From a virus (lineage: Duplodnaviria > Caudoviricetes), in the IMG/VR virus record IMGVR_UViG_3300032218_002330, positions 1 through 48,855 of that record: a stretch of 48,855 nucleotides of DNA, one strand, 5' to 3'. Under the pieces are notes generated by a model. It saw only the letters and a program-made list of their open reading frames with translations. It ran no database searches and was not told where the DNA came from. Made by a program: the position numbers and the translations under genes. This document shows positions 6,817-40,408 of the stretch, one piece after another (position 1 is the first letter of the stretch; the number at the start of each line of letters is the position of its first letter).

Positions 6817-9800
6817 TATTTAACACCCACCTTACTTAACGAGCCATTCATTCCAACTCTTTGATTCAAAATTCTTTGTACTTCCATTGCTACTTCTTTA
6901 GCATTAGCATTTTGTGCATTTATAGTAATATTAAACGTTCCACCCATTGTACCATTATTCATGTTTGCGGGTATAATTGCTTCTCCTTTATGTATTTTAG
7001 CAATCATATCATATGGAACATTTGGAGTTCCTACTGCAAATGAAGGCATAGAATATTTAGGTGTATTTATCATTCCGCCATTAGCAAATGATCCAAGTTC
7101 TTTTAATACTGTTCCTGCTGGTTTATTTAAAGCTAACCATAATGCACTTGGAGTATTTCTTCCAGATCTAATATTTGGCATAATAGAACCAGTAAGTCCT
7201 GCATTATTCATCATTTTGCCTAACTCTGGTCCTGCATAATTATAATTTTTTCCGCCTAACATTTTCCACAAATCATAGTTTTGAGATTTAATTGATTTTG
7301 TAAAATCTATGTATTTGCCAAATGGAATGTTGGCTACTTGATGAGTTGGACCATATGTATCAATTCCTGTATTAAATCCTTGTGCATATCTTTCTGCTTC
7401 ATTTTTGCTGGAGGTGCTAAAGAATCCCATACCATAATGAGCATCTCTTGCATATGAACCATCCAAAACAGATGTGCCTGACATAGACATAGCAGAGTCG
7501 CCATGGTACATACCTTGTTTAACTAGGTTCTTAGCCTTAAAATAATTTTTATATTGATTAAGTAAATTAACTGGCTTATATGCCAAAGATGTTGCTTCAC
7601 TTAATTTTGCAATTAATCCGCCAATAGACCCTGGACCATAAGACATTTCATTCTTTAATAAAGGAACCTGTTCCATTTTTCCTGTATTTGGATTTTTCAT
7701 TACTATAGGTTTGTTGCTACCAAATAATAATTTGCTCCAGAAACTTTGTTTATTAACTTGACCACCATTTGCAAAATGACCTGCATTTAATGAATCAAAC
7801 ATTCCCTTGCCATATTTGTTAACTGAAGATGCTTTAATTACATATTCTCCATTTGATAGATATGCGGGTATTGAATCAGATGTTGCAGATCCTGCTCCAG
7901 ATATGTGTCCTCCAGAAGCTAATTTTAATTTTGGACCATACACGTTTTGCTTTGTTTGATCAAATTTATAAATTTCTGTACCAGTTAAAGTATCTGCAGC
8001 ATAAGCTTGTCCTTTCCAAGTAAATATTTTATATGAACGAGTAGGATCACCTGGATCTGGCATCCAAGTTGTAGTTGGGGTCTTACCACCTTGTGCTGCT
8101 TTAACTGCTTCTTTTAATGTTTTTGCTTCAACATTTTTAACTGGAACATTAGTACTTTGTCCATGACCAGCAACTGCATCAGATACACTTCCTGCTTTAT
8201 TAGCAGCTGCAATTTTGTCTGCAAGCGATTTAATACTTGCTTCATCTAACACAGTAGGTTTTGGGTCAGTAGCTTCATTTGAAAGTGTTTTTAAATATCC
8301 TTCAGATTTTGCAATACTTGCATTTTGTTTATCAAGTTTTGCTTGTAAAGTATCAACTAATGATTGCGCTGGACTTTTAGTTGTTGTATCTTGAAATTCA
8401 TAAGTTTTAGCTCTTAATTGTTGTTGTAAAGATTGTACCTTTAAATAATCACCTTGTGACCTAGCAACTCGAATTTGTCCTTCAAGATCTGTTTGAGTAA
8501 CTGCAAAATCATGTATTGCTTTTGCAATTCTTTGACTTTCTTGTTCAATTTTTAATTTTTTCTCAGCTGCTTTTAATTGATCTTGTAATGAAGTTGCAAC
8601 TGCTTGTTGTGCAGTAACTGTTTGACTTGCAATCCACAAATTTAATTTTTGTTGTTCGCCTTGTCTAATAAGACCTGCAATTAATTTTGGATCAGTTGCA
8701 AGCTTTAACAAATCTTCTTTAGTTGCATTTTTTGGGATAACATTACTTTGATTATATTTTAACAAAAATTGTGCAGCTGAAAGATTTAATCCCATATCAT
8801 TATATTTTTGTAATAATGTAGCGGTTGTGTAATCTTTAGCATCATTTGCAGCTAAAATTAATAAATTATAAGCTTGTGCTGTATCCCTAACACTTCTATC
8901 TAAAGCTTTTGCAGCAATTACTGCATCTCCCCAAGAAGTATTTGTATCCATAATTGTATTAAGAGTTTGGAGTAAACCATCAGCGTATCTTTTTTGATTT
9001 TTATTTAAACCTTCGTAAGAACCAGATAAAATTCCTGAAGCCCCTGCAGCATCTCCAAGTTTTTTTATCAAAGTTGATGTAGCTGTTTCTACATCTTTTG
9101 TAGCTGGAATAATTTCTTTTAACGCAGCAGAAAGATATTTTGATTGTCCTGAATATTCTAATATTGCTGCCACCATCTGTTTGACAGCTTTTGGATCCAT
9201 ACCTCCCGCAACTTGTGCTGCTGCATATTGCTTTAAAGTTCCAATAACAGAACTTCCTGTATCCATTTTACTAATGGAATCAGCAACTAATTTTAATCCT
9301 GATTTATCATTCAATTTTCCAATTGCATCTACATTTTCTTTTAATTTTTTTGCTTCTTCTGAAGTAAAAGCAATTTCTTTAGAAAATGTGTGAATATGTA
9401 TTGATTGATCACGTAAAGTTCCACCAAACATGCTAATCGCATCGCTGCTTGCTGTAAATGATGCAGTAACCATTGCTTGATGTTCTTTTTCTTTTGCAAT
9501 TAATGTTGATATACCGCTAGTTACTAATCCTAGTGCTGCTCCCGCTGCTGCTCCCCAAGGACCAAACATCATACCCATAGAACCCATACTTAAAGCTGAG
9601 GTTAGCATTTCTTTGCCAGCAAACTCTGGTGCTGCATTGAGAGCCATGCTACCACCCATCATTGCAAGGCTTCCGCCTATCATCATTTTACCGCTGGACA
9701 TTCCTTTAAGTCTTGAAGCAAATCTACCTTTACCTTTTGCTGTGTTTTCAGTTGCAATTAGTGCTTCTACAGCTGTTTCTTCTGCTGCTGCTACAACTAA

Positions 9801-12647
9801 ACCTTGATTTTGAATCATACCTTGTGCAAGTCCCTGATCCATTTGTTTACCAATTTTAGCCATTTCTTGTGAAGGGCTTTTAATTCCTGCTGCTTTTTTA
9901 TATGCTTCTCGTGGATTTTTTTCTACTGTAATGCCTGCTGCAATTGCTTTTGGAGTTTGCATTTCATCTACAAAATCATCACTTACAATATGCATTTGAG
10001 TTGCACCTGGTCTTCTAGACTTAGCAAAGTAAGGAATTATACTTCCTGCGCTACGGATCCACCTTGCAGAACCTCCAGATACACCTCTTCCATCTGATCT
10101 TGGAGTAGTAGCTGTTCTTACACCGCCTACCATTCTTTTTTCATTTTCATATTGTTGTATAAATTGCGGGTTATCCGCAAACTCTTGCGCTATAACCTGA
10201 TCATATGCAGCAAATGCTGACCTACCTACTATTTTATCCGAAAGATTATGCGCAAATTTTTTAATTGATTCTTTATAAGCAAAATGAACTTTTTCCCCAA
10301 CTATTTTAGCTTTTTCATCATCTATGCCTGCAGATTTCATTAATGCCATTAACGCTGTATGTGTTTGATAACCACCATTTTTATCAGTCCAAGCAGCTAA
10401 CTCTGGACCAGATGCTTTGCCAGCTGTTAACTGACTATTCATAGATCCAGTTCCCTTACCTCTTGGACCTTCAAGATAAAATGTAGGCAGCAAAGTTCCA
10501 TCAGTGCCTTGCTCAAATGCTTTACCACCACTTGGATTTATTAAATTTAAAGCTTGCATTGCAGCTAACGGGTTACCTGTTCTAACTTTATCTATCACAT
10601 GTTCAGGAATAACAGCTTCACCTTTTTGTAAGATAGCTGGAATTTCATCTCCTGCTGCTTTACCAGTATGAAATTTCTTTCCAAATCCTGGTTGTCCTGG
10701 AAGTAATAATTTAGATGCAACTGATGATGCTACATTAACAGAATTTACAGCATTCATAGCTGTAGCCATTCCTTCAATAGTAATTGTCAATTCTCTAATT
10801 GCCTGATTTAAAAGATTTACTGAATTTTTATCTTGTAATATTTCAGTACTAAATAAACTTGCTGCTTGTTGAGATGCAATTAAATTAGGTGTAAGTAATT
10901 CGCCTAATGTTTTTGAACCACTAATTAAAGATTTAAGTCCAAAAACACCTCTAAGAATATATCCCACAAAGTTACCAAGCACACCAGTAAACATAATTAG
11001 TGGTCCCGCCAAAGCTACACCACCTGCCAAAATTCCCATTAAACTTTTAACTGGTGCGGGAAGATTGCTAAATACATTTGCAACAGAATCTCCAAATTTA
11101 AGAAGTACTGTTGCTATCTGCATAACCTTTTCACCAATTGGAATTAGATCTGCTTTAATTGTTTCTATTGCTCTTTGAAATTTACCTGTAGTGGATTCTG
11201 TAGCAGTTTTCATTTCACCTGCTGCAATACTTGCAAGTTGTCCACTGCTAGCATTCATAAGGTCAAACGCTGATTTTGTCTGACTTGTTGCAGAACCTAA
11301 ATTAGTTATCAATGCTTGAATTCTTGCTTCTTGAAACTTTCCAAAAAGCTTTTCAATAAGTTGTGCTTGAGCAAGCGGTTGCAATCCTTTTAATGCTGAT
11401 TGTAACATCATAATCATTTTGATAGGATTGCCTTTTGTTGTTGTTGCAATACTTTCTAAATTTATATTATAATCAGCAAAAGCTTTTTTTGCTGCTACTG
11501 TAGGATTAATAAGTGAAGCAAGTGCTGATTTAATTGCGTTAGCAGACTGTGCTGCTGGAACTCCTGCTTCTTTCATTGCAACCATCATGATTGCTGTATC
11601 TTTAAATGATCCGCCTAATTGTTTTACAATTGGTCCAACTCTTGGAATACCATCTACCAAATCTTGAAGACTTGTTGATGTTTGGTTTTCAACTGCGTTA
11701 AGGAAATTAACTGCGCCAGAAAGATCCTCTGTACTTAATTTATAAACATTTTGCAAGGATACAGTTGCTTTCATTGCAGACTGAGTATCCATTTCACCAA
11801 GTTTTGCAAGCCTTAATGATTCTCTTGTTGCATTAAGAAGTGCATTACCCTGTAAACCTGTAGCAGCTAAATCTGCTGCCATTGCTGCTGTATCTTTAAC
11901 TGCAATACCCATAGTTGAAGCAAGTTCTTTTGCTAGTCCTATCGTTTGAGCTTTAATGGTTGCAAGTGCATCAGCTGTTGGTTGTGTTAGTCCAGAACCG
12001 TAAACTTTTTGCAAACGAATAAGTTCATCATTTACATCTTTAAATGTTTTCATTGCTGTATTGCCAAATATAGCCATAGGTACTGTAAGTCCAACTGTTA
12101 ATTGACGACCTGCCCACTGAGTATTTTTACCCCAGTTAATTAAAGACTGAGTTCCTTTTTGAACGGCAATATTATAAAGATTTTGCATGTTAGTTGCAAT
12201 TTTTGTAGCATTAGCAACTTCATTAATTTTAGTTGGTGTGTATACAGAAAAAACACCCTTTTTTGTAGGGTCTGCCATAACTATAGAATTTTGTAATTTA
12301 GTTTGTTCTAACGCAAGTGCTCTCATTTGAGCAGAAGCAGCAGAAGATTGATTTCTGATTATACTAAAATATTCGGTAAGTTTTAATTTTCCATTAACAA
12401 GTGAATGTGCAAATTTATCTGTTTCTGCTTGAAGCTTTACTGTACTTGCAGTAAATTCTCCAGTTGAAAGCATGGCTGATTTAAATGCAGCATTTGCAGA
12501 ATTTAAATCTTTAGTTAATTGTTGGCTTACGCCTGTACCCATTAAACTTTTGTTTAATAAATCAACTTGAGCTTTTAAAGCAGCAATTTGGGAATTAACA
12601 CTCTTAAAGTCACCTAAAGCAACTATATTAAGTTCAACTCTTGCCAT
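6816..12647 (-). CDS. Tape measure protein (TP901-type core) with C-terminal accessory domains
   Basis: 1943 aa, Ala/Gly/Lys-rich helical; core DLAATG...AVENQTSTSLQDL; GPWGAAAG hydrophobic segments; follows the chaperone pair. Confidence 0.93.
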   Translation of the reverse strand: MARVELNIVALGDFKSVNSQIAALKAQVDLLNKSLMGTGVSQQLTKDLNSANAAFKSAMLSTGEFTASTVKLQAETDKFAHSLVNGKLKLTEYFSIIRNQSSAASAQMRALALEQTKLQNSIVMADPTKKGVFSVYTPTKINEVANATKIATNMQNLYNIAVQKGTQSLINWGKNTQWAGRQLTVGLTVPMAIFGNTAMKTFKDVNDELIRLQKVYGSGLTQPTADALATIKAQTIGLAKELASTMGIAVKDTAAMAADLAATGLQGNALLNATRESLRLAKLGEMDTQSAMKATVSLQNVYKLSTEDLSGAVNFLNAVENQTSTSLQDLVDGIPRVGPIVKQLGGSFKDTAIMMVAMKEAGVPAAQSANAIKSALASLINPTVAAKKAFADYNINLESIATTTKGNPIKMIMMLQSALKGLQPLAQAQLIEKLFGKFQEARIQALITNLGSATSQTKSAFDLMNASSGQLASIAAGEMKTATESTTGKFQRAIETIKADLIPIGEKVMQIATVLLKFGDSVANVFSNLPAPVKSLMGILAGGVALAGPLIMFTGVLGNFVGYILRGVFGLKSLISGSKTLGELLTPNLIASQQAASLFSTEILQDKNSVNLLNQAIRELTITIEGMATAMNAVNSVNVASSVASKLLLPGQPGFGKKFHTGKAAGDEIPAILQKGEAVIPEHVIDKVRTGNPLAAMQALNLINPSGGKAFEQGTDGTLLPTFYLEGPRGKGTGSMNSQLTAGKASGPELAAWTDKNGGYQTHTALMALMKSAGIDDEKAKIVGEKVHFAYKESIKKFAHNLSDKIVGRSAFAAYDQVIAQEFADNPQFIQQYENEKRMVGGVRTATTPRSDGRGVSGGSARWIRSAGSIIPYFAKSRRPGATQMHIVSDDFVDEMQTPKAIAAGITVEKNPREAYKKAAGIKSPSQEMAKIGKQMDQGLAQGMIQNQGLVVAAAEETAVEALIATENTAKGKGRFASRLKGMSSGKMMIGGSLAMMGGSMALNAAPEFAGKEMLTSALSMGSMGMMFGPWGAAAGAALGLVTSGISTLIAKEKEHQAMVTASFTASSDAISMFGGTLRDQSIHIHTFSKEIAFTSEEAKKLKENVDAIGKLNDKSGLKLVADSISKMDTGSSVIGTLKQYAAAQVAGGMDPKAVKQMVAAILEYSGQSKYLSAALKEIIPATKDVETATSTLIKKLGDAAGASGILSGSYEGLNKNQKRYADGLLQTLNTIMDTNTSWGDAVIAAKALDRSVRDTAQAYNLLILAANDAKDYTTATLLQKYNDMGLNLSAAQFLLKYNQSNVIPKNATKEDLLKLATDPKLIAGLIRQGEQQKLNLWIASQTVTAQQAVATSLQDQLKAAEKKLKIEQESQRIAKAIHDFAVTQTDLEGQIRVARSQGDYLKVQSLQQQLRAKTYEFQDTTTKSPAQSLVDTLQAKLDKQNASIAKSEGYLKTLSNEATDPKPTVLDEASIKSLADKIAAANKAGSVSDAVAGHGQSTNVPVKNVEAKTLKEAVKAAQGGKTPTTTWMPDPGDPTRSYKIFTWKGQAYAADTLTGTEIYKFDQTKQNVYGPKLKLASGGHISGAGSATSDSIPAYLSNGEYVIKASSVNKYGKGMFDSLNAGHFANGGQVNKQSFWSKLLFGSNKPIVMKNPNTGKMEQVPLLKNEMSYGPGSIGGLIAKLSEATSLAYKPVNLLNQYKNYFKAKNLVKQGMYHGDSAMSMSGTSVLDGSYARDAHYGMGFFSTSSKNEAERYAQGFNTGIDTYGPTHQVANIPFGKYIDFTKSIKSQNYDLWKMLGGKNYNYAGPELGKMMNNAGLTGSIMPNIRSGRNTPSALWLALNKPAGTVLKELGSFANGGMINTPKYSMPSFAVGTPNVPYDMIAKIHKGEAIIPANMNNGTMGGTFNITINAQNANAKEVAMEVQRILNQRVGMNGSLSKVGVK

Positions 12648-23892: not shown

Positions 23893-25284
23893 TTAAAGAA
23901 TTAATGAATAGTACCACGCTATACCTTCATCTACTTCGCCTGTTGCACCTTGTGTTCCTGTTGGGCCTGTAGAACCTGTTGGCCCTGTATTTCCTCTTGC
24001 TCCTGTTGGCCCATTTGCACCATCGTTTCCTGAAAATCCTGTTGCTCCTGTTGGCCCTGTTGCTCCAGTAATAGAGTTAGCAGCACCAGTTGGCCCAATT
24101 GATCCTGTAGCACCAGTTGCTCCCGTAGGACCAACGACTGTACTATCTGCTCCCGTAGGACCAGTAGATCCAATATTGCCTTGTGCTCCTGTTGGACCTG
24201 TAGAACCAGTATTACCTTGAGATCCTGTTGAACCTGTAGACCCAGTATTGCCTTGTGCTCCTGTTGGACCTGTAGAACCAGTATTACCTTGAGATCCTGT
24301 TGAACCTGTAGACCCAGTATTGCCTTGAGACCCTGTTGGACCTGTAGAACCTTGTGCGCCCGTATTTCCTTGAGGACCTACAATTTGTCCAACATTTGTC
24401 CAAGAAGAACCATTCCATACATAAAGATTTCCATTATCAATCTGTAGATAAGCGTCATTGGTTAATTGTCCAGTTATTGCATTTAAAGCTGTTGAATTAG
24501 CTACAGAACCTTTAAAGTTAATACTTGTTCCTTGAGCACCTGTCGCTCCTGTAGGGCCTGTAGATCCTGTTGGACCTGTAGGTCCAGGAACTGTACTGTT
24601 TGCTCCTGTTGGGCCCGTTAAACCTGTATTACCTTGTATCCCAGTAGGTCCTGTGGCACCAGTTGGACCAGCTATGGTACTATTTGCGCCAGTAGCGCCT
24701 TTAATATTTCCAATGTCAACCCATGAAGATGTTAGCCAAACAACCAAATCTCCATTATTCAATATGTATGCATCTCCATTTGAACCAACTGGTATTGCTG
24801 CTGATAATGATGATAAATCTGTATATTGACCTTTTATTAAAGTTGGAACTCCTTGAGCACCCGTTGGTCCAGTTGGACCAATAATTCCAGTTGGACCTGT
24901 TGGACCTGTTGCTCCAAAAGCGGGAGACCAAGAAAGTTCAGAACCATTTGTTGTTAAAAAATAACCATTTTTATTAGTTTGACTTGGAACTATTGGGATA
25001 GTTATTGAATCACCAAGTTCAATTTGATTACCATTTATATCAATGTAAGAATTAATCAATGAAGAATTTGGTATAGATAATATTGATGTTAGTAATGAGC
25101 TAACTTTGTAATCTATAGAATTTGTATTAGCAGAACTATTAATGCCAATTTTTGCTTGCATTGATTCAATGGCATCATTGATATCTGAGTGTTCAGACGA
25201 GTGTCGAACACCTTCATCATTTAGAGTATTACTAGAATTGGGGTTTTGAAAATCATCTAACCCGCCAGGGAAATTAGTAGCCAT
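23893..25284 (-). CDS. Collagen-like fibre protein 4
   Basis: Long G-X-T/Q triplet runs, two GDAY..GDL.VW linker domains, C-terminus AWYYSLIL. Confidence 0.85.
23935..24370. repeat. Collagen-coding tandem repeats including a 72 bp unit
   Basis: Repeated 24-codon unit [24 protein letters not shown]. Confidence 0.8.
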
Positions 25285-25318: not shown

Positions 25319-25930
25319 CTATCTTCTAAATACGCCTGTTGCCCTTGCAAGATGATTCATAATTCCTGGATCCCAGCCTACTGGAAGATCATTCATCCAA
25401 GTTACCAATACATATTTTTCACCTTCTGTAACTGGCATTGCTGCATGTAGGTATGTATGATTAGAAGGGAAAAGCACAATTGCTGGCTTTTCAGGTTTTA
25501 CGCTAAGATCGAAATGCTTAAAGTGAGTTTCTCCACCTTGATAATCAGACGGGTTTAAGTAAATCAATGCAGAACTTGTTCTGTAAATACTCCAAGCTCC
25601 GTCTGAATGATAGTCATACTTATTAGACTCTCTATATCTCAAAAGATTTAAACCTTCATCTTGATTAACTGGTGCAGCAAAATATGCTGAATAATCATTG
25701 ATTGCTTCTGTAAGAGTTTTTCTTACTTCTTGAGACCAGAACGGCAAAGACTCATCAAAATTAATACTTTGACTTGTTCTAATTTCTTGCTCTTGCAAAT
25801 CATCATTACCTACACCACTTTTAGACCAAGGGAGCGTTGTTGACTGTTGAACCATATCTACTATATTTTTTGCTACGGATTCTGGAAAATCATACTGCCA
25901 AACTCCTACTGCTAACTCTTTATGTTCCAT
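25319..25930 (-). CDS. 2OG-Fe(II) oxygenase, prolyl 4-hydroxylase-like
   Basis: IRTS, LLRY, HSD, YLN..DY.GGET.F, FPSN..Y.H..MPV..G.KY: HxD...H triad and 2OG-binding Lys. Confidence 0.9.
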   Translation of the reverse strand: MEHKELAVGVWQYDFPESVAKNIVDMVQQSTTLPWSKSGVGNDDLQEQEIRTSQSINFDESLPFWSQEVRKTLTEAINDYSAYFAAPVNQDEGLNLLRYRESNKYDYHSDGAWSIYRTSSALIYLNPSDYQGGETHFKHFDLSVKPEKPAIVLFPSNHTYLHAAMPVTEGEKYVLVTWMNDLPVGWDPGIMNHLARATGVFRR

Positions 25931-26646
25931 TATTTTACCTTTCTTTTAAAAATCTTTTTAACCCATAAATCTTTTGAATAATGTTTTTCTATATTTCCAA
26001 TATTATCCTCAAGTGTAATATATTCTTCTTCATCTATGTCTTTGTATTCTATTTCCCACTCTGAACGAACAAATGGAACTATTTGTGCAAGAGGTGTTCC
26101 TGATGCTATCTTTACTGGTTTATTTATATCCATATCTTTTATTGTAAATAAAATATTTAATGGCATATAAAAATTATCTGTGTCTACAATCCCTGGCATA
26201 ATTTCTGTTTTTAGATCTGGTCTATATTGAGGTTGCATCATCATTATACTAGTACCTTTTGGAGTTTTAAGTCTAAAAGGGCTTATAAATTTTTCTACGC
26301 CAGTTTTTTGCATAGCAAAATTTACTGATGGGAATAAACCTAATTGTTCATGTGGATGAGGGCTAAACATTTGTCGACCTTCATCTCTATGTCTAACCAC
26401 AAACATTTTTCCATTTTCATCTTTTTGAATGAGCACATCAAATGGCCAAAAAACAATATACCCTTGTGTCATTTGATCATAAACCCCACGACAAGTTTTA
26501 ACTGTTTTTCTAGTCATTGGGTTATGTAATTCTTTAAACCATTCAGGAATACATTCTTCAGCTGGTTTTGGTTTAAACATATTTACATGATGATCTTCGC
26601 TGAAAGAAATCTCTTTATAATGAAATTCTATTGTATTTCTTTTCAT
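25930..26646 (-). CDS. dUTPase-like-fold protein (DUF6065-like), paralog B
   Basis: TVKTC..V.D.M..GY, KTPKG, PGIVDTD, GTPLAQIVPF. Confidence 0.6.
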   Translation of the reverse strand: MKRNTIEFHYKEISFSEDHHVNMFKPKPAEECIPEWFKELHNPMTRKTVKTCRGVYDQMTQGYIVFWPFDVLIQKDENGKMFVVRHRDEGRQMFSPHPHEQLGLFPSVNFAMQKTGVEKFISPFRLKTPKGTSIMMMQPQYRPDLKTEIMPGIVDTDNFYMPLNILFTIKDMDINKPVKIASGTPLAQIVPFVRSEWEIEYKDIDEEEYITLEDNIGNIEKHYSKDLWVKKIFKRKVK

Positions 26647-27362
26647 TTGTAAGTCTTTTTATTCCAAAAAGTTCTTTTATATCTATTTTCAAAAAATATT
26701 GAATGCTTCATTAAATTAAGCATTTTCTGACCTTTCTCTAGCGTGGAGTACTCTGCTTCCCAATCATTTCTTTTAAAAGGTATAACTTGTGCTATTGGTG
26801 TATTAGCTGGGATTACCCCTTCAAAATCATTTCTTAATATAAATGGAAATTGCACTGATAATTTAAACCCATCTGTATCTACAATTGCAGGTAATATTTG
26901 AAATGGTAGATCATCTCTATGCATTGGTTGAACAAACAAAGTACTCCAACCCTTTGGAGTTTTTACTATCCAATTATTAGTCCATTTTAAAAAATTTCTA
27001 TTAAATTCTTTAGGTATATTCATAGTATCTACTTGCGAATTTGCATGCTCTGTCACAAGCTTAAAATCAATTGGGTTTGAAAACACGATTCCACCATTTT
27101 CTTTGTTTCTAGAAACATTTACATCTGATGGCAATAAAATATAATAGCCTGTTGTCATAGAATCAAACACTGGCATACATTTTTTTATAGTAGAGTTTGC
27201 AAAACCATTTTCATAATTTTTTATACCATCCATATAACCATTCATTTTTTTATACCACTCAGGCACCATTTTAGAAGCTGGAACTGGTTTTGGCCAATAA
27301 TCTAAATCTGGTTCCTCAGAAATAAATTCTATTTTTAGCCTATTTCTCATTCTCAAGAACAT
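26643..27362 (-). CDS. dUTPase-like-fold protein (DUF6065-like), paralog A
   Basis: TIKKCMPVFDSMTTGY, KTPKGWS, PAIVDTD, NTPIAQVIPF; start may be the Met a few codons downstream. Confidence 0.6.
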   Translation of the reverse strand: MFLRMRNRLKIEFISEEPDLDYWPKPVPASKMVPEWYKKMNGYMDGIKNYENGFANSTIKKCMPVFDSMTTGYYILLPSDVNVSRNKENGGIVFSNPIDFKLVTEHANSQVDTMNIPKEFNRNFLKWTNNWIVKTPKGWSTLFVQPMHRDDLPFQILPAIVDTDGFKLSVQFPFILRNDFEGVIPANTPIAQVIPFKRNDWEAEYSTLEKGQKMLNLMKHSIFFENRYKRTFWNKKTYK

Positions 27363-28557
27363 TTTCTAGCCAAGGGTATCCTGGTTGATACATCCACTTA
27401 TCATAGTCAGTTGTAGAGTATACATAAAGCTCAGTTAAAAAGTTAATGTATGAAGTTATTTTATTATGCTTAATCTCATCGACTGGAGCAAATATTTTTT
27501 TGTCTTTATAACTTATATTTGCTAACTTTTCATAATCTTCAAAAGATCGTTTTGCGTTTTTAGTTTTTTTAAGTTTTTCAATTAATTCTTTTCCACCTAA
27601 TCCACTATCCCAATATGATTCTGCAGCAAAAAGTTCTGGGAATTCTGTTTCTGGATGAGGTCTATGGGCCAAGTTTTGTCCTGCAGATTGTGAATAAAAA
27701 TGCATAATTCCAGTAATTCTGGGGGTATAAAAAGTATAACCTTTCATATAAGAAAGAATAGAATAATATTGTTCTTCTTCTAAAAATCTTAATTTAGGAT
27801 CAGCTGGAACATCGTAAATATATTTTCCATCTGCAAATATTTGTGCTGGAGATATTGCTGATGCAAGTGCAATTGTTTCAGCAAAAGCCATTTCTCTATC
27901 GCCATGTCTTGGGAAACCATTTTTATTAAAATCTGGTTCTGCATGACTTACAGGCCTCATGCAAGGAACACGATTAAACCCTTCTTTGCCTCTAAAGTAA
28001 ATTTCTTTTGACTTTTTATTATAAAAAGGATACATTTCATTGACAAATGGAAATTCGTCTGGAGCATATGCAATTGGATATCCAGTTATTAGTGGCATAT
28101 CATCACCTAAAGCTTTTAATCCCTCCAAGTGATTTATCAAAAGATCATCCCAATGTGGGTCAAATTTCATATGAGCATCTATTTGTAAGAAATAATCTTC
28201 TTTGTTATAAAAAGAATTTGCGTCTGCTCTTTGTTTTCCAAGCCCAACGTTTTCTTTATTAATTGGCTTTAAACTTATTTGTATATTTTTAAACTTTTTT
28301 AATTTTTCCCAATATGGTTTTTCATCTTCGCCAAATACAAGACCTATACCAAAAAATAACCTATCTGGATTTTTTGCGTTATAAATAGCACTTTCAATTG
28401 TTTCAACTAGATCATCATCTCTATAACAAGGTATAGCAACAAAAATTGTTTTACTATCTCTGCCATCACGATATACATCAAAAAAAGATTCATATTTATA
28501 AACATTATCTAACTCATTTGAAACTGAAGTTTGATACGGTTTTTGCATTATTGACAT
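27340..28557 (-). CDS. GT60-like GlcNAc transferase (Skp1-hydroxyproline/polypeptide GlcNAc-transferase family)
   Basis: IFVAIPCYRD...TI.S....A.NP.R..FG, YFLQIDAHMKF...WD (DxH motif), F.EE, GY..Y.P...H.Y, R.F.DYE motifs. Confidence 0.8.
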   Translation of the reverse strand: MSIMQKPYQTSVSNELDNVYKYESFFDVYRDGRDSKTIFVAIPCYRDDDLVETIESAIYNAKNPDRLFFGIGLVFGEDEKPYWEKLKKFKNIQISLKPINKENVGLGKQRADANSFYNKEDYFLQIDAHMKFDPHWDDLLINHLEGLKALGDDMPLITGYPIAYAPDEFPFVNEMYPFYNKKSKEIYFRGKEGFNRVPCMRPVSHAEPDFNKNGFPRHGDREMAFAETIALASAISPAQIFADGKYIYDVPADPKLRFLEEEQYYSILSYMKGYTFYTPRITGIMHFYSQSAGQNLAHRPHPETEFPELFAAESYWDSGLGGKELIEKLKKTKNAKRSFEDYEKLANISYKDKKIFAPVDEIKHNKITSYINFLTELYVYSTTDYDKWMYQPGYPWLENVLENEK

Positions 28558-28572
28558 TATTATTTCTTTCTA

Positions 28573-29250
28573 TTATACGATAAACTCTAGAGCTGTACCT
28601 GATGCATATCCAGTTACATCTATTAATATATTACTTGTATTTCTTGTAGCTTGTGAGACTAACACTACAACCCCGCCACCAGTTGTATAAGTAGAAACTG
28701 GTTTATAGCCTGTAGCATAAATTGTACCATATCCAGAGATTTTACGTGCAGAAACTATTGCAACCCCACCTCCTGGATTCGTTCCATCTCCTGCGCCACC
28801 TTTTAAAAATAAAGGGGTTGTTTGACCAGCATGTAACATGTATCCTGAAACTGCGTTTCTTGCTAAATTAAAATAACCCGTAGTGGTTGGGGCGGTTGCT
28901 GTATAGCTTGCACTAGAGCCACCTAAAGAATTTGCTACAGATACTGTTCCTCCACCTTGAATTGTTCCTGTAGTAGATGAACCATTTTTTAAACCAATAC
29001 TTGTTGTTGCTTGATTAGCAATAGCAGTTGAAAATGAAAGAGAATTTCTTACAAATACTCTATACCCAGCAGTATTTAGATGTATACCATCATTAATAGT
29101 TAAATTATTATAATACATATCTCTTGACAAAGATGTATTTGCAGATATAGTAACATTTCCATCTTGACCTGAACCATATACCTCATCTGGGATTGAAGTA
29201 AAACTAGTTGATGTTGATGCTCCTATTGATGAAGTACCTGATTTTCCCAT
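28573..29250 (-). CDS. Glycine-rich virion protein, short paralog of the 743 aa protein
   Basis: YG.G.DGNVTIS.NT.L.RDMYYNNLTIN.G..L..AG.R.FV shared with 29261..31492; GGGV..V repeats. Confidence 0.75.
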   Translation of the reverse strand: MGKSGTSSIGASTSTSFTSIPDEVYGSGQDGNVTISANTSLSRDMYYNNLTINDGIHLNTAGYRVFVRNSLSFSTAIANQATTSIGLKNGSSTTGTIQGGGTVSVANSLGGSSASYTATAPTTTGYFNLARNAVSGYMLHAGQTTPLFLKGGAGDGTNPGGGVAIVSARKISGYGTIYATGYKPVSTYTTGGGVVVLVSQATRNTSNILIDVTGYASGTALEFIV

Positions 29251-29260
29251 TTTTTTCTCC

Positions 29261-31492
29261 TTATTCTGCTGCTAAATTATTTACTATTACTATTGTACCA
29301 GAACTTGATGATCCTGTCTGACCAGTTGCACCTGCGATAGTACTTGTTGTTAATCCTACTGGAACACCACTTGTAGACATTATAAATATAACTCCACCGC
29401 CACCTACATAACCAGATGAACCTGTAGCACCTGTAGCACCAGCAGTTGCTGTCCCACCTGCCCCACCTGCTCCACCGACCCAATATGTTGCTGTATTAAA
29501 AGTTGCAGTTGGGTAATTTGTTGCATATGCTGATATTGGATATACAGTATTATATCCAGTTAATGGATATGCTGTTGAATAAGTTGAAATTGGATAATTT
29601 GTTGCATAATTTGCTGGATAATTTGCTGGATTAAAACCAATAGATGGATATGCTGTTGAATAACTTGAAATTGGATAATTTGTTGCATAATTTGCTGGAT
29701 AGTTTGTTGCATTAACTCCAGGAGAAGGATAATTTGTTGCATAGTTACTTCCAGATGCTGGATAAGTTGTTGGATTTGAACCTACTACTGGATAGTTTAC
29801 ATTTGTAACATATGATGATACTGGATAAACTGTTGGATTTGAACCAGCAACTGGGTAGGTAGTAGTAGTTGCATAGTTAGTTCCAGATACTGGATAAGTT
29901 GTTGGGTTTGTTCCAGCAAAAGGATACGTAGCTGGATTAAATGCACTAGGAATTGCAAAATAAGTAGTTGGATTTCCGCCAGCTACTGGATAAGTTGTTG
30001 GATTTGAACCAGCTACTGGATAAGTTGGAGAATTAAGGTTTTGTGAGTATTTTTGATTGCCTCCCGCAACAGCTAACGGATAAGTTGGCGCATTATATTT
30101 TAAAGTTTTTGGCGTAGGATTATAAAGACCTGTTGAAGTCCCCGCTGTAGTATTATAATTTGGCGTATTATAAGTTCCAAGTGCTACTGGGTTTCCACCT
30201 GCTACAGTATTGTAGTTTGTAGTTCCTGGAGTAGTAGAATAAAATGTTTGTGCTGGAGTTGTAGTATAAACTTGATTTCCTGAAACATAATTATAGTTTG
30301 AAGTTCCTGGAGTGGTAGTATAGTTAGAACCTGTTGATGGATAATTTACTGTAGTTGTATAATTTGGATTACCTGGAAAAGTATTATACCCCGCAGCAGA
30401 AGAACCAAAAGTTGTAGCATAGTTTGGATTACCTGGAGTGGTAACATAGTTAGTACCAACTGCTGGATAAGATGTTACATAGTATGGATTTCCTGGAACA
30501 GTATTATATCCAGTTACTGGATAAGAAATTATATAGGGTCCAATAGGATAATTAGTGGCATATACTGCATTTCCTGGAACAGTATTATACCCATTTATTG
30601 GATAAGAGGTTGCATACAATGCAACAGGATAATTAGTGGCATATACTGCTGGGTAATTTGTAGCATATGCTGCAATTGGATAACTAGTAGAATATGTTTG
30701 TGGGCTTGAAGCTATAAATAAATTTGGAGCTGCTGCTCCTGCAGTTCCTGGAGTCCCCGCATTTCCTGCTGATCCTGCTGATCCTGCTGAAGCTCCTATA
30801 CCATTTGCATAAATTGCACCTGAGCCAGTAATTGTTTTAGCAATAACTACAATTACTCCACCACCTGAACCACCTGCTCCTCCAAGACCTCCTGCGCCAC
30901 CTGTACCAGCAACGCCATCAGTTCCAGTAGCGCCTTTACCACCTGGAGCTAAAACTGTATTTGCATTTGGTGGATAGTTACCAACAGAGCCTGCTGTACC
31001 AACATTTGCAGTACCTGCAGCACCTGTTGCTCCTGTTGCGCCTGTAGAGCCACCTGCACCACCTGAAACAGGAGAAATAGCACCTGTTGTAGCATTAATA
31101 TATAGAGTTGAAATTAAATTTGTTATGTTGTAAAAAAATTCTTTAGCAGAATCAATTTGCGTAGCTGTTTTATCTCCACTATTTCCGCCAAGGGAATTTA
31201 TAGCATTATTTCCAACAGTTGAACCGCCTGAAATTGTTCCTGTCTGCGTTGTATTTGCAGATCTTGCAATTGTAGAAGTTCCACTAACAAAAGTAAGCGT
31301 ATCTTTAACAAATATTCTAAAACCAGCGGGATCTAAATTAAATCCTGAGTTAATAGTAAGATTGTTATAATACATATCTCTAGTAAGGGTGGTATTAGTA
31401 GATATAGTAACGTTACCGTCGGTTCCGTTACCATAAACATAAAGTCCACCAGTTCTAGTATTTATTACAATTGGAATGGAACTAATTGACAT
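29261..31492 (-). CDS. Glycine-rich virion protein carrying a ~400 aa Tyr-Pro/Thr/Asn repeat insert
   Basis: 743 aa; about 26 YP dipeptides in YATNYP and GSNPTTYP units. Confidence 0.8.
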   Translation of the reverse strand: MSISSIPIVINTRTGGLYVYGNGTDGNVTISTNTTLTRDMYYNNLTINSGFNLDPAGFRIFVKDTLTFVSGTSTIARSANTTQTGTISGGSTVGNNAINSLGGNSGDKTATQIDSAKEFFYNITNLISTLYINATTGAISPVSGGAGGSTGATGATGAAGTANVGTAGSVGNYPPNANTVLAPGGKGATGTDGVAGTGGAGGLGGAGGSGGGVIVVIAKTITGSGAIYANGIGASAGSAGSAGNAGTPGTAGAAAPNLFIASSPQTYSTSYPIAAYATNYPAVYATNYPVALYATSYPINGYNTVPGNAVYATNYPIGPYIISYPVTGYNTVPGNPYYVTSYPAVGTNYVTTPGNPNYATTFGSSAAGYNTFPGNPNYTTTVNYPSTGSNYTTTPGTSNYNYVSGNQVYTTTPAQTFYSTTPGTTNYNTVAGGNPVALGTYNTPNYNTTAGTSTGLYNPTPKTLKYNAPTYPLAVAGGNQKYSQNLNSPTYPVAGSNPTTYPVAGGNPTTYFAIPSAFNPATYPFAGTNPTTYPVSGTNYATTTTYPVAGSNPTVYPVSSYVTNVNYPVVGSNPTTYPASGSNYATNYPSPGVNATNYPANYATNYPISSYSTAYPSIGFNPANYPANYATNYPISTYSTAYPLTGYNTVYPISAYATNYPTATFNTATYWVGGAGGAGGTATAGATGATGSSGYVGGGGVIFIMSTSGVPVGLTTSTIAGATGQTGSSSSGTIVIVNNLAAE

Positions 31493-31827
31493 TAAACTAT
31501 CTCAATTCCTGAAATGTGAATATTAATTGCACTAGTTGTTGACGCTAGAGCGTAAATTGATGCACCCGTAGGTATAACAATTGCAGTATCAATTGTAGTA
31601 GTTGTATTTGCAGAAACAGTAACAGCCCCAAGAATTTGATTTGAGGTTGTAGCTGATCCAGCACTTGGAACTAAATGTAGTGTAGCTCTTGCATCACTTG
31701 CTGTTGTATTTGCAAGAACAATTGTTTTAATTGTTGTTGTAGTTGAAGCGGGAGCTGTATACATTGAAACTGCAGATGCTGTTAATGTAGTAACTGCTGT
31801 CAATTGCTTTGTTGTATATGTAGCCAT
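31492..31827 (-). CDS. Small fibre adaptor-type protein
   Basis: 111 aa beta-rich; YTAP..TTT.IK.I..AN...ISG.EI pattern that typically follows phage fibre genes. Confidence 0.65.
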   Translation of the reverse strand: MATYTTKQLTAVTTLTASAVSMYTAPASTTTTIKTIVLANTTASDARATLHLVPSAGSATTSNQILGAVTVSANTTTTIDTAIVIPTGASIYALASTTSAINIHISGIEIV

Positions 31828-31850: not shown

Positions 31851-34157
31851 TTAAAGTATCATGGAATAATACCATGCTGCATCTTCTGTTGATATTGTAC
31901 CAGTAGATGCGGGTAAAGTTAAAGTATTTGATCCTGCTATAGCAGTTGATTGAATAATAATTGCACCAGATGTAGAACCAGCATAAGAAACACTTGTAAT
32001 TCCCGTCAATGCTAAATTAGCAGATGTTCTATTTAATGCAACTGCAGTAGTTCCAATATATGCTGTTGAATTACCAAGAACTCCAGATGGAATTGTTCCA
32101 GAAAGATTTCCAGCAGTTAGGTTTGTTAAGTTTGCACCAGATACTGTACCAAATAAACCAGACCATGTTCCAGTGGTGATTGTACCAACTGATGTGATAC
32201 TTGTATTTCCAGTCCATGTTGACAATGCTGTATTTTCTACGTTATTTAAACTTAAATCTGTTTTTACAGTTGAAGCAGATGCTGCTGAAACTGTATTGTC
32301 TGCAGCAATCTTTAAATATGTTAATGCACTTGGATTAGTTAATGTAAATATATTTGAACCAACAGTTGTAGCACCAAGGTTTGTTCTTGCACCTGTAGCG
32401 GTAGTTGAATTAGTTCCACCATTTGAAACAGACAAAGTTCCTGTAACTCCAGTAGTTAAGGAAACATTTGTAATTGTATTGTTTGAACCATTAATTGTTT
32501 TATTAGTTAGCGTTTGAGCAGTTGAAAGATCTGCTGTAATTGTTGTGTCAATTGCTAATGTAGAACCAGATTTAGAAAGACCATTTCCTGCTTGAATAGC
32601 TTGTGCAGCATTAAATTGTGTGTAAACTAAATTATCAGTTCCTAGAACTGCAGTCCCCGTTGGAGAAGATAAAATAAATCCAGTATTAGCATTTGTTGAT
32701 CCTTCTGTAACAAATGTAAAGTCTCCACCTGCAACTTCGCCATTTGGATTATTATCATCATCTGCTGCACGAGTTATAATCCATTTAGAAGACCCGCTTC
32801 CAATATTTGTAACTTCATAAATACCATTTTGTTTTGCATCAGTTTGAGATTTTATTAAAACTCTATCGCCAACTGCTAATGTAACTCCATCGGCAGGGCT
32901 AATTGATTGATTTATTGATGCTGTTAAAGTAGCACCATATCCATTAGTTCCATTATCATAAACTGCAGACCAATTATTTACTGATGCAATTCTTACTGAT
33001 TTATGAAAGTTAATTCCTGAAGCAATACCATCAACATATAATTTAGTTGCTGCGTGTAAATCAGATGTAGGTGCACCAGATAATGTAAGTGCTCCAGTCA
33101 TTGTTCCACCAGTTTTTGAAAGTTTATCATCAATTTGTGTTTGAATTGCTGAAGTTACTCCATCAAGATATCCAATTTCTGTATCTGATACGTTAGTTAT
33201 TCTTGTTTGGATTGTTGTTGTGTCTACAACTAAATTAGAAGCATTTGTTGTAAGTCCCGTCCCAATATTTAATGCTACTGTGTTAGTTCCTGAATTATAT
33301 GTAACTGGAGCTGTTGCATTTGTTACTCCTGAAGGACCAGTTGGACCAGTTGTACCCGTAATTCCTGTGTTGCCTTGTGCTCCTGTTGGACCTGTAGATC
33401 CTGTAATACCTGTGTTGCCTTGTGCACCTGTAGCGCCTGTAATACCTGTGTTGCCTTGTGCACCTGTTGGACCAACCACTGTACTATCTGCACCTGTTGC
33501 GCCTGTAATACCTGTGTTGCCTTGTGCTCCTGTTGGACCTGTAGATCCTGTAATACCTGTGTTGCCTTGTGCACCTGTAGCGCCTGTAATACCTGTATTG
33601 CCTACTGCACCTGTTGGGCCAGTGGTTCCTGTAATTCCTGTATTACCCATTTCACCTTGTGGGCCTTGGTTTCCTGTATTTCCTACTGCACCTGTTGGGC
33701 CAGTGGTTCCTGTAATTCCTGTGTTGCCTTGTGCACCTGTTGGACCAGTGGTTCCTGTAATTCCTGTGTTGCCTTGTGCACCTGTTGGGCCAGTATTACC
33801 AACATCTCCTTTTGATCCTTGAGGTCCTGTAGCGCCTGTTGCACCAACAATTCCTTCTACACCTTGTGGGCCAGTTGGTCCAGTTGGGCCTAATCTTGAT
33901 GGAAGTTGTGAATCTGGAACTATACCAGATGAGTTTAATGTTGCAACTCCACCTGTAGCGCCTTTTTCTGAATATGAAATATAATCTGTACCTGCAACTG
34001 GAATATTTGCGGGAGTAGGGGAAGACACCCATTCACTACCATTATAATAAGTAATAGTATGTGTAACTAAATTCCAATAAATATCACCTTCACGACCTGA
34101 AGTTGGATCTGAATATAATGGAACAAGCTTAATTGGTGTTTTAAAAATTCTTGACAT
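31851..34157 (-). CDS. Collagen-like fibre protein 3 with a head-decoration/fibre domain
   Basis: G-X-T repeats, GGTMTGAL.L...P....HAATK.YVD, GDRVLIK.QT...QNGIY, C-terminus AWYYSMIL. Confidence 0.85.
33330..33890. repeat. Collagen-coding tandem repeats
   Basis: Repeated [10 protein letters not shown](A/S/T)TG(P)T units with near-identical DNA. Confidence 0.85.
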
Positions 34158-34172
34158 ATAATCCCCTTTAGT

Positions 34173-34211
34173 ATAGTGGGGTAGGAGGAAATTTTCTTCC
34201 TACCCCACTAT
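34173..34211. terminator. Long intergenic inverted repeat
   Basis: ATAGTGGGGTAGGAGGAA / TTCTTCCTACCCCACTAT, ~18 bp arms with one mismatch, between two fibre genes. Confidence 0.7.
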
Positions 34212-34224
34212 TATACCTTTAAAT

Positions 34225-36327
<2,103 letters not shown>

Positions 36328-36347
36328 TTATTTATTTTATTTTTTTA

Positions 36348-37001
36348 CTATGAGAAATACGCATATCCAGAAATTCCTTCAGAAAATGTAAGAACAACTG
36401 AATTTTCATTTGTATACGATATATCACATTCTACTTGATTTGAGCTGTAATCCATAACAATTACATTAGGTCTGAAGCCTAAATTATGAGTTACAGTCCA
36501 TGTTATTGCATTGCTTTGTTTTTCGTAAGTATACGAAACGAGATTTACATTAAACCCCGCCAAATCTCCTGGATCACCTTTTGCACCAGTTGCACCTTGT
36601 GCACCTGTAGCGCCATTGCTACCTGCAGAACCTGTTGCTCCCGCAACACCTGTTGCTCCTACAGCACCTGTTGCTCCAGTTGATCCGTTTGTACCTGATG
36701 GACCTGTAGCACCATTGCTACCTGTAGAACCTGTTACTCCCGCAACACCTGTTGCTCCTACTGCACCAGTGGCACCTGCTGGTCCTTGAACGGGGCCAAC
36801 ATTTGTCCAAGCAGAACTAACCCAAACATAAAGATTTTCAGCAACAAGATATCCTTGTCCTGATGTTCCAGTTGGGTGAGCTGTTTGTAGCGCAATAAGG
36901 CTATTATATCTGCCAAGGATTGTTATACCAGTACCTGCTGGACCTGTTGCTCCAGCTGGACCTCTTGAACCCTTTGCACGAACTACTATTGTATTAGCCA
37001 T
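36348..37001 (-). CDS. Collagen-like fibre protein 1
   Basis: G-A/S-T triplets; C-terminal W.V.HNLG..P.V.V.D...G.AY domain. Confidence 0.85.
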   Translation of the reverse strand: MANTIVVRAKGSRGPAGATGPAGTGITILGRYNSLIALQTAHPTGTSGQGYLVAENLYVWVSSAWTNVGPVQGPAGATGAVGATGVAGVTGSTGSNGATGPSGTNGSTGATGAVGATGVAGATGSAGSNGATGAQGATGAKGDPGDLAGFNVNLVSYTYEKQSNAITWTVTHNLGFRPNVIVMDYSSNQVECDISYTNENSVVLTFSEGISGYAYFS

Positions 37002-39406: not shown

Positions 39407-40408
39407 CTAAAAATGGTCAGATTGTATTTTTTTCAATCTCTCAACTGCAGGTTTAGAGACTTTATTCCAGTTGTAGTCTTTATGAATAAGAAATGAATTT
39501 TGATAAGCTATTGCAGCATAGTGATCAAAATCACTAACCACATCTTGCATAAAATATTTTAATTGTGCATAATTTGGCTTTAATAGTAATCCTGGATGTA
39601 ATTCTGCCCAAGGAGATTCTGCCCAAACGGAATCTAAAGGCATAGTAATATATTTTTTATACTGTGCCCAACCAGATGTACATATCGTTGGCATTCCTGA
39701 AGCCATTGCTTGAAGTGGATTAAATCCAAAACCTTCTCCCCAAGACGGGTAAACAAAAACATCACATAAATCATAAAGTCCATGCATTTGTTCTACAGTT
39801 AATGAACTTTCAATTATTTTAATGTTTTTATAATTTGCATCTGGAGATCCTTTTACCATTCCAGTATCTTTATCAAAAATTCTAGTGGTATTTAATCTGC
39901 TACATTTTATAATTAATTCATATCGTGGATCATCCCCGTACAGACTAACAAAAGCATCTACAACCATTTGAGCATCTTTTCTAGAAGCTGGTTCTCCAAC
40001 ATGTAAAAATCTAAATGGGCGGGATTTATTAAATTCTCTTTTCTTAGGTATCCAAGAATCATCTACACCGTGTTCATAAACAAATATTGGTTTGTCAGTA
40101 TGCTTTGAAAATATTTCTCTATTCCACTCTGAAGTTGTCCAGAGTTCATCTATAACATTATTGATAACATTATCCCAACCCCAAAGTAACTCAGTTGATT
40201 CCCAAGGTGTATAACCAATTTTATATTGATCTTTGGCAAATGTATACTGCAATGGCTGAATAAAAGATATGCCTATGTTAGGCTCTTTTGATTTAACTAA
40301 GCATTCTATACCCAGATTGTTAAATGAATTAAATATATGATTTGAAGCTTCACCATATCCAACATTACGATCCATATACTCTGGAGCACCTGTAAATGAG
40401 ATTTTCAT
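39407..40408 (-). CDS. GT4 (GT-B) glycosyltransferase
   Basis: GYTPWEST, RK, FVYPSWGEGFG..PLQAMASGMP.I. Confidence 0.88.
   Translation of the reverse strand: MKISFTGAPEYMDRNVGYGEASNHIFNSFNNLGIECLVKSKEPNIGISFIQPLQYTFAKDQYKIGYTPWESTELLWGWDNVINNVIDELWTTSEWNREIFSKHTDKPIFVYEHGVDDSWIPKKREFNKSRPFRFLHVGEPASRKDAQMVVDAFVSLYGDDPRYELIIKCSRLNTTRIFDKDTGMVKGSPDANYKNIKIIESSLTVEQMHGLYDLCDVFVYPSWGEGFGFNPLQAMASGMPTICTSGWAQYKKYITMPLDSVWAESPWAELHPGLLLKPNYAQLKYFMQDVVSDFDHYAAIAYQNSFLIHKDYNWNKVSKPAVERLKKIQSDHF

Follow-up and report, generated by a model that had tools for sequence, protein, structure and literature searches.

A candidate glycosylation and hydroxylation cassette with an adhesin-like scaffold bearing a hypervariable insert in a tailed phage

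The window analysed here is the entire IMG/VR virus record IMGVR_UViG_3300032218_002330, a stretch of 48,855 bases with the tailed-phage genes for a portal, a protease, a capsid and a long tape-measure-like protein. Within an island inserted after the ribonucleotide reductase (RNR) gene lies a minus-strand cassette, which encodes a scaffold protein with a hypervariable insert, a GT60-like glycosyltransferase (GT), two dUTPase-fold proteins and an oxygenase of the prolyl 4-hydroxylase (P4H) type. The insert type and the enzyme set swap together in related phages, so the enzymes are likely to glycosylate and hydroxylate the insert. The cassette genes were as follows.

31492..31827, minus strand: 111-aa Thr-rich small protein (weak phrog_1276/20100 matches; 66-74% identical in type-A relatives)
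29261..31492, minus strand: 743-aa Gly-rich adhesin-like scaffold with the hypervariable insert, proposed substrate (phrog_13336, E 2e-6)
28573..29250, minus strand: 225-aa short scaffold paralog without the insert (phrog_13336, E 8e-4; HHalign to HRTV-5 gp33)
27340..28557, minus strand: predicted GT60-like (GT27/GT60 clan) protein O-N-acetylhexosamine (O-HexNAc) transferase (PF11397, structure model, motifs)
26643..27362, minus strand: DUF6065/phrog_7084 dUTPase-fold protein A, DUTa (family match, fold, invariant TxKxC Cys)
25930..26646, minus strand: DUF6065/phrog_7084 dUTPase-fold protein B, DUTb, paralog of DUTa (family match)
25319..25930, minus strand: Fe(II)/2-oxoglutarate (2OG) oxygenase, collagen-P4H type (PF13640, P4H structures, ligand residues)

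Properties of the cassette proteins

The initial annotation had described four coupled enzyme genes, and all four open reading frames were found on the minus strand, overlapping in one operon by 23 nt (GT and DUTa), 4 nt (DUTa and DUTb) and 1 nt (DUTb and oxygenase). The 743-aa and 225-aa genes were separated by 10 nt, and the 225-aa and GT genes by 15 nt. The conserved unit starts one gene before the boundary given earlier, at 31492-31827. The 111-aa gene found there opened the module in nearly all relatives and stood upstream of the scaffold pair in most loci, and its product is likely a fibre connector.

The families proposed for the enzymes (a GT60-like GT, dUTPase-fold paralogs and a P4H-like oxygenase) were all recovered. 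The GT matched the Pfam family GlcNAc (PF11397) with 104.4 bits against a cut-off of 21 (E 1e-29). In GT60 enzymes, DxH and a distal His are metal ligands, accompanied by a GEE-type motif. The corresponding positions in the GT were D127-x-H129, H286 and E260-E262 (EEE); DxH, EEE and the distal His were invariant in 38 close relatives, and D127-H129 and H286 across 51 sequences. The structure model, with a predicted local distance difference test score of 89.5, was a GT27-like GT-A catalytic domain with no ricin lectin domain (no lectin Pfam match). The top Foldseek matches were all polypeptide N-acetylgalactosaminyltransferases (ppGalNAc-Ts). A second structure comparison also ranked ppGalNAc-Ts first, with Z scores of 21.1 and 19.2 against 16.0 for the next best and a root-mean-square deviation (rmsd) of 3.8 over 280 residues for the top one. 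The fold and the intact motifs point to a protein acceptor. According to passages of PMC8724618, GT60 is defined as a GT27-like catalytic domain without a lectin domain, and protist GT60s initiate mucin-type O-linked N-acetylglucosamine (GlcNAc). A sequence search of the PDB with the GT gave nothing useful, and the single match among GenBank phages was in XacN1, in a non-structural context. In the sister clade of the window GT (L025:12318-13625, L057:12373-13644, L181:5910-7136, L071:12926-14197), DxH and GEE were lost. These genes stay directly ahead of the DUTa orthologue and are followed by a second, intact GT60, so they possibly encode a pseudo-enzyme.

The oxygenase matched PF13640 with E 5e-13. 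Its best PDB matches were a bacterial P4H (E 6e-10) and a chlorovirus P4H (E 4e-4), and other 2OG hydroxylases matched weakly too. The HxD...H triad and the Lys were present (H108, D110, H162 and K172), and K172 aligned with the Lys of the bacterial P4H. The protein is thus of the collagen-P4H type; Pro is the predicted target, and Asn, Tyr or other targets are also possible.

DUTa and DUTb shared 30% identity and matched phrog_7084, and DUF6065 weakly. The DUTa model fitted the dUTPase fold (Z 9.2 and rmsd 2.9 across 123 residues), with dUTPases or dCTP deaminases in the 13 highest ranks, and the protein had an invariant Cys in TxKxC. A 118-sequence DUF6065 profile found no sequence match in the PDB. 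Trimeric dUTPases and dCTP deaminases have five catalytic motifs, of which motif 5 is C-terminal and Gly-rich. A motif 3-like IVDTD and a motif 4-like PIAQ were seen by eye in DUF6065, and motif 5 was not.

A nucleotide or DNA modification pathway, with the enzymes acting on bases, would fit the dUTPase fold, the location of DUF6065 genes beside RNR in HRTV-5 and S-RIM4, and the frequent reading of phage GTs as DNA modifiers. However, the GT was closest to ppGalNAc-Ts and the oxygenase to P4Hs, and only the motif 3- and 4-like stretches seem to be kept in DUF6065. Moreover, a Gly-rich adhesin-like gene lay within 2.5 kb upstream at 31 of 61 fully visible DUF6065 loci, compared with 71 of 458 control positions. 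Such a pathway is considered highly improbable for the cassette, and the DUF6065 pair itself may still have a nucleotide role. The pair directly adjoined 25 of 42 GT60-like genes and also accompanied halogenases and hydroxylase arrays, and DUF6065 was often found alone behind Gly-rich adhesin-like genes. Our guess, the weakest step of the interpretation, is that the pair would assist the maturation of Gly-rich adhesins in general and would have no part in the sugar chemistry. In cultured hafunaviruses, a DUF6065-like gene lies between the adhesin and RNR (HRTV-5, L167:6896-7738 = gp36; 8652-9857 = gp33), and 49 of 50 GenBank matches to the DUF6065-like family were haloviruses, which offer a tractable system.

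The insert comprised residues 257-669 of the 743-aa protein (413 residues). It was rich in Thr (18%), Tyr (15%), Pro (13%), Asn (13%) and Ser (8%), with no His and three charged residues, and contained 108 Ser/Thr, 53 Pro and 61 Tyr. A Tyr-Pro/Thr repeat protein with a paralog had been described earlier. The paralog was real, with 54% identity to the scaffold over 98 aa of the head, and Tyr-Pro occurred 26 times in the insert against 7.6 expected from shuffles. Four relatives had only 0-4 Tyr-Pro and shared the richness in Thr, Tyr, Pro and Asn. Tyr-Pro was accordingly rejected as the defining motif, since it is particular to the window.

The family phrog_13336 is that of gp33 of the halovirus HRTV-5, to which the 225-aa paralog aligned by HHalign (70.8%, E 4e-5). 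Gene 33 of HRTV-8, of the same length, is labelled a putative adhesin in the supplement of PMC8651126, parts of which also tie Gly-rich adhesins to host range. The 743-aa protein is distantly related to the hafunavirus tail adhesin. Its description as adhesin-like is a lead rather than an assignment, because the weak homology is confined to about 53 head residues. The Hafunaviridae tail-fibre adhesin (gp38-like) belongs to the same PHROG family and shares the N-terminal head and the combination of Gly-rich motifs and variable segments; a further likeness to the cassette is a DUF6065-like gene three genes away. In contrast, it has six to seven short hypervariable segments, whereas the phage scaffolds have one low-complexity insert of 120-420 residues, and no GT or oxygenase is annotated alongside it. 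With the short paralog, a PDB sequence search gave nothing useful and no GenBank phage matched. A scan of genome contigs returned eight loci that matched the head only, without the cassette and without a host.

Insert type and enzyme set in related phages

The order paralog, GT, DUTa, DUTb was kept in all eight related type-A loci, at 50-72% identity and with differing flanks; L001, identical to the window, was excluded. The P4H gene came next in seven of the eight, and the remaining locus ended before that point. One of the eight, a complete 130.5-kb phage, carried the cassette with no match to the window portal, and another record matched the portal at 53%. In the nearest portal relatives (84%), the site of the cassette was occupied by an FN3 protein carrying a Phe-Pro polymer, together with 3-9 hydroxylases, and a GT was lacking. 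The cassette is a conserved, mobile unit that moves intact between unrelated phage backbones. A search for the major capsid protein in four cassette-bearing records, run with no positive control, gave no match anywhere. In L214-L217, the block of halogenase, DUF6065 and P4H genes was inverted relative to the scaffold genes and yet still adjacent to them.

Co-variation on the same scaffold was studied with two scans, limited to the 80 best of 169 stretches and the 80 best of 398; such best-match sampling over-samples close relatives. Of the 79 distinct long proteins, the 78 with a usable short paralog formed 52 clusters. All nine clusters with His-free inserts had a GT60 within 3 kb and no halogenase. 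For the 28 short-then-long clusters, of which 27 were strongly His-rich, no GT was found (0/28), and a gene of the tryptophan-halogenase family was present in 27, the exception being incomplete. The 15 clusters with a small His core (type B) had no halogenase. A P4H-like gene was present in 50 of the 52 clusters. The His-rich inserts (up to 36% His; L028, L029, L034, L043-L079, L209-L229) were nearly always followed by P4H-like and tryptophan-halogenase-family genes. The type-B families f5 and f8 had been candidates for divergent GT60s and were ruled out by HHalign.

Furthermore, 80 loci were chosen, blind to island content, by the small gene before the portal, which about 1,900 stretches were estimated to match. 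Enzymes and insert protein occurred together in 16 loci, 16 complete islands had neither, and none was discordant. The other 48 were uninformative: 8 with enzymes stopped short of the substrate position, 16 partial ones showed no enzymes, and the remaining 24 were of insufficient length. One partial negative, L294, shares its contig with L099, where enzymes lie further upstream. The claim of an enzyme-plus-substrate cassette, with an enzyme set that co-varies with the adjacent insert, was thereby supported across phage contigs, by few independent events.

These data also bear on the possibility that the enzymes act on surface proteins of the host or produce a small metabolite derived from peptides or amino acids, for superinfection exclusion or host fitness, and that they lie in the fibre island merely as a recombination hot spot. 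Comparable cyanophage and pelagimyophage clusters are read in this way in passages of PMC2938197, PMC7824862 and PMC7029224, members of these enzyme families are also encoded at a distance from repeat genes, and a Hint-like domain at the end of some FN3-repeat partners could serve to release a peptide. The enzyme type, however, changes in register with the insert, and the 16 complete islands without an insert protein were also without enzymes. In addition, family searches of the proteins of the window's island found no peptide synthetase or sugar pathway. A host or metabolite target is therefore rather unlikely.

The residues of the insert were compared in 24 enzyme-bearing islands (the 16 blind ones, 7 found via cassette genes, and the window). 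With a threshold of 6% Thr, set post hoc, ten islands had at least 6% Thr and a GT, 13 had less than 6% Thr and no GT (all Phe-Pro repeats), and one was Thr-rich without a GT. The Pro content of the insert correlated with the number of hydroxylases (rho 0.85, n=24), with relatedness ignored and a second oxygenase-like family uncounted. Within 22 His-rich loci, rho was 0.75, relatedness again ignored. GT60 accompanied Thr-rich inserts on three unrelated scaffolds.

Several island types have their own repeats. The (FFxPPx)n proteins before the portal (L230, L232, L244-L248, L251, L267, L299, L301, L304, L306, L307) mostly had FN3 and many had a Hint-like C-terminal domain; behind them came DUF6065 genes and 3-9 P4H-like oxygenases but no GT. 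Where FN3-repeat-Hint-like proteins carried PFGFT or FSPFGVFG repeats (L136:7453-8784, L130:7641-9263, L120:7909-9273, L140:672-1958), DUF6065 pairs and a divergent GT60 without DxH came next. A third scaffold (L263:308-1339, L266:1688-2755) had a Cys/Thr/Asn-rich insert, then small Cys-containing open reading frames, DUF6065 and a motif-intact GT60. At L094 (3872-5050, 13314-14534), another virus contig, a canonical GT60 and a DUF6065 gene lay no more than 10 kb from a (Thr-Pro)n mucin-like lectin protein.

The initial annotation had proposed a relay like that of Gnt1, possibly oxygen-dependent, in which the oxygenase converts Pro of the insert to hydroxyproline (Hyp) and Hyp is the sole site at which the GT adds GlcNAc. 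The enzyme classes are the same two as in PhyA/Gnt1, where the GT requires Hyp, as stated in parts of PMC6939170. Gnt1 is likewise a soluble cytoplasmic GT60. The insert offers 53 Pro, and P4H follows the GT in seven of the eight type-A loci. Nevertheless, 13 islands with repeats of 34-43% Pro had 3-9 hydroxylases and no GT, and L263 had a motif-intact GT60 beside an insert of 15% Thr and 3% Pro, with no hydroxylase in the island (the rest of that genome lies outside the view). The GT thus goes with Thr content and the hydroxylase with Pro content, which favours modification in parallel over a relay. Oxygenases of the PHD/PhyA type use Arg as the 2-oxoglutarate ligand, and in the window's enzyme the collagen-type K172 takes its place. 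By this comparison, the cassette does not appear as a member of the PhyA-Gnt1 pathway. The relay and its oxygen dependence were not supported in the form proposed and are judged unlikely.

Proposed modification of the insert and related systems

In the reading preferred here, the GT60-like enzyme would modify Thr/Ser of the insert by mucin-type O-HexNAc addition and the P4H-type oxygenase would hydroxylate its Pro in parallel; on balance, we hold this explanation to be slightly more probable than not. The cassette genes would be co-transcribed late. The extended insert would then be modified in the host cytoplasm before assembly, with UDP-GlcNAc, O2 and 2-oxoglutarate from the host. The GT would likely add alpha-HexNAc, presumably GlcNAc, directly to Thr/Ser, acceptor and sugar being part of the prediction, while the oxygenase likely hydroxylates Pro. 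The scaffold, its short paralog and the 111-aa protein would be assembled together on a fibre, and the predicted result is a dense, uncharged, mucin-like glycosylated patch, presumably at the tip of a virion fibre. Its purpose might be receptor choice, protease shielding and stiffening.

Several observations weigh against this assignment. The 15 type-B clusters contain 19-26% Ser plus Thr and had no adjacent GT60 (two had a distal one), and the His-rich inserts hold 5-13% Thr, yet without a GT; a Thr-rich insert is thus not sufficient for a GT (types B and C). Three changes on the paralog tree suffice to explain the insert classes, so the same-scaffold pattern is not independent evidence. For the backbone-gene loci, the portal tree gave three changes and two independent pairs (sign-test p 0.5), and in the residue comparison both traits changed four times on a 22-row tree, with three independent pairs (p 0.25). 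With just 2-4 independent changes behind them, the patterns are statistically non-significant. The Cys-rich insert class, like the Thr threshold, was a post hoc choice, added after L263 and L266 had been seen. Moreover, GT60, DUF6065 and oxygenases were also found away from any repeat gene, and in 10 of the 61 fully visible DUF6065 loci other enzymes were present but a substrate was not scored within 2.5 kb, in one case through a scoring miss. At the position of GEE in other GT60-like proteins, the window GT has EEE, and its sugar donor may therefore differ. Several neighbouring GT60-like proteins have no DxH, including those beside PFGFT repeats and in the sister clade of the window GT, and so does the first GT of the type-D islands; the loss beside PFGFT and in type D weakens one of the insert-enzyme contrasts. 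As for precedents, passages of PMC7019647 report a chlorovirus P4H that was active on Pro peptides, yet no Hyp in virions, and parts of PMC9614988 report hydroxylation and not glucosylation in mimivirus particles. Finally, the model is drawn from genes, and its chemistry, expression and virion location are all inferred from them.

Several known systems resemble the cassette in part. In its logic the cassette is close to mimivirus L230, and it would work like the mucin-type initiation of protist GT60s joined to a viral P4H. The protist GT60s (mucin-type Golgi enzymes of Dictyostelium and T. cruzi, and the Skp1 enzyme Gnt1 with PhyA) belong to the same Pfam GlcNAc family and share the lectin-free GT27-like domain and intact DxH, and PhyA-Gnt1 also has a prolyl hydroxylase-like partner (PMC6939170). 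The phage GT differs in lying in an operon with its proposed substrate, in having EEE for GEE, and in favouring Thr over Hyp, as judged by gene co-occurrence. The mimivirus L230 lysyl hydroxylase/glucosyltransferase likewise combines a hydroxylase and a GT of viral origin, with a structural repeat protein of the same virus as substrate (PMC9614988). However, it is one fused enzyme of a eukaryotic giant virus, acting on Lys with Glc in collagen, whereas the phage has separate genes and a non-collagen insert. In mycobacteriophages (Freeman et al. 2023), glycans are carried by virion proteins of an actinobacteriophage, as proposed for the cassette. They are at the C-termini of capsid and tail-tube subunits, and the passages citing that work mention no GT60, hydroxylase or variable insert. 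The Syn9-type neighbourhoods of Iyer et al. (2010) (PMC2938197) resemble the module family in their tandem 2OG dioxygenases, tryptophan halogenases and dUTPase-fold protein with a conserved Cys. In bacteria, the same authors proposed co-encoded collagen-like or tail-collar proteins as substrates of hydroxylation-sulfation operons. In contrast, the phage cluster was read there as a secondary-metabolite one, the main text does not use the word glycosyltransferase, and its passages describe no insert-bearing adhesin or insert-enzyme matching. The literature search, with subscription papers outside its scope, did not turn up any account of a phage GT60 linked to an insert-bearing adhesin, any paper on DUF6065, or any joining GT60, Gnt1 and prolyl hydroxylase in bacteria.

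More generally, and tentatively, aquatic tailed phages might use a code on their receptor-binding proteins like that of ribosomally synthesized and post-translationally modified peptides, with swappable low-complexity inserts inherited together with matched tailoring enzymes; we rate this as possible. The inserts would be Thr/Tyr/Pro, His-rich, Phe-Pro or Cys/Thr, the enzymes GT60, flavin halogenase, hydroxylase arrays and dUTPase-fold proteins, and the window the O-HexNAc (mucin-like) version, a prokaryote-virus counterpart of eukaryotic mucin-type initiation. Host recognition would then depend on post-translational chemistry and not just on sequence. Genes for 2OG oxygenases, halogenases and glycosyltransferases are frequent in phages and tend to be classed as auxiliary metabolic, DNA-protecting or host-surface functions without a known substrate, and the cassette offers a concrete, testable candidate substrate for a phage GT60 and P4H. 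If the preferred reading is true, phage adhesins can carry mucin-like glycans and host range may not be readable from sequence alone. Its GT would be a small, soluble, lectin-free O-HexNAc transferase for glyco-engineering. The cassette also bears on the origin of GT60/GT27 mucin-type initiation.

Flanking collagens and phage setting

The cassette is flanked by collagen-like genes.

23893..25284, minus strand: G-X-T collagen-like fibre protein downstream of the cassette, possible secondary GT substrate (PF01391, triplet counts)
31851..37001, minus strand: three G-X-T collagen-like fibre genes (768, 696 and 217 aa), upstream variable flank (triplet counts)

The flanks had been called Thr/Pro-rich. 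They were Thr-rich (12-19%), but Pro was only 3-6%; it stood in the X position, with at most two Y-position Pro per protein, and the Y position was mostly Thr (46/70, 42/62 and 81/134 triplets). The downstream collagen was not at the equivalent position in relatives. The collagens thus look like poor P4H substrates that lie outside the conserved unit. They could nevertheless be the main substrates, with Thr glycosylation stabilising the triple helix and the insert being incidental, as Thr dominates the Y position, bacterial G-P-T collagens such as BclA are glycosylated (passages of PMC8968730), and the type-A loci L003, L005 and L007 have upstream collagens. However, no collagen was flagged in the visible part of the type-D, L263/L266 and PFGFT islands, which have GT60-like genes, collagens stood beside the portal without enzymes in partial islands (e.g., L237 and L305), and Y-position Pro is almost missing. 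We therefore consider collagens as main substrates very unlikely. A short motif recurred in the collagens and once in a 1413-aa tail protein (window 1889-6130, 34225-36315), and it may be a module for fibre attachment or a hinge.

The closest cultured matches of the portal were Streptomyces phages of the Stanwilliamsviridae (about 55%). The order glycosyltransferase, RNR, hypothetical gene, small gene, portal, protease, capsid was common to the window and these phages, and a WhiB gene was found in one related locus. On these grounds, the host would be a freshwater actinobacterium. Promoter and terminator counts were no higher than in shuffles. The ESM Atlas search matched only viral clusters without names, contigs of four other DNA runs contained only short fragments of close relatives, and no RNA data set was listed for the region. 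The GT4 glycosyltransferase gene upstream of RNR (window 39407-40408) was also present in enzyme-less relatives and in Streptomyces phages, and it is a core gene separate from the cassette.

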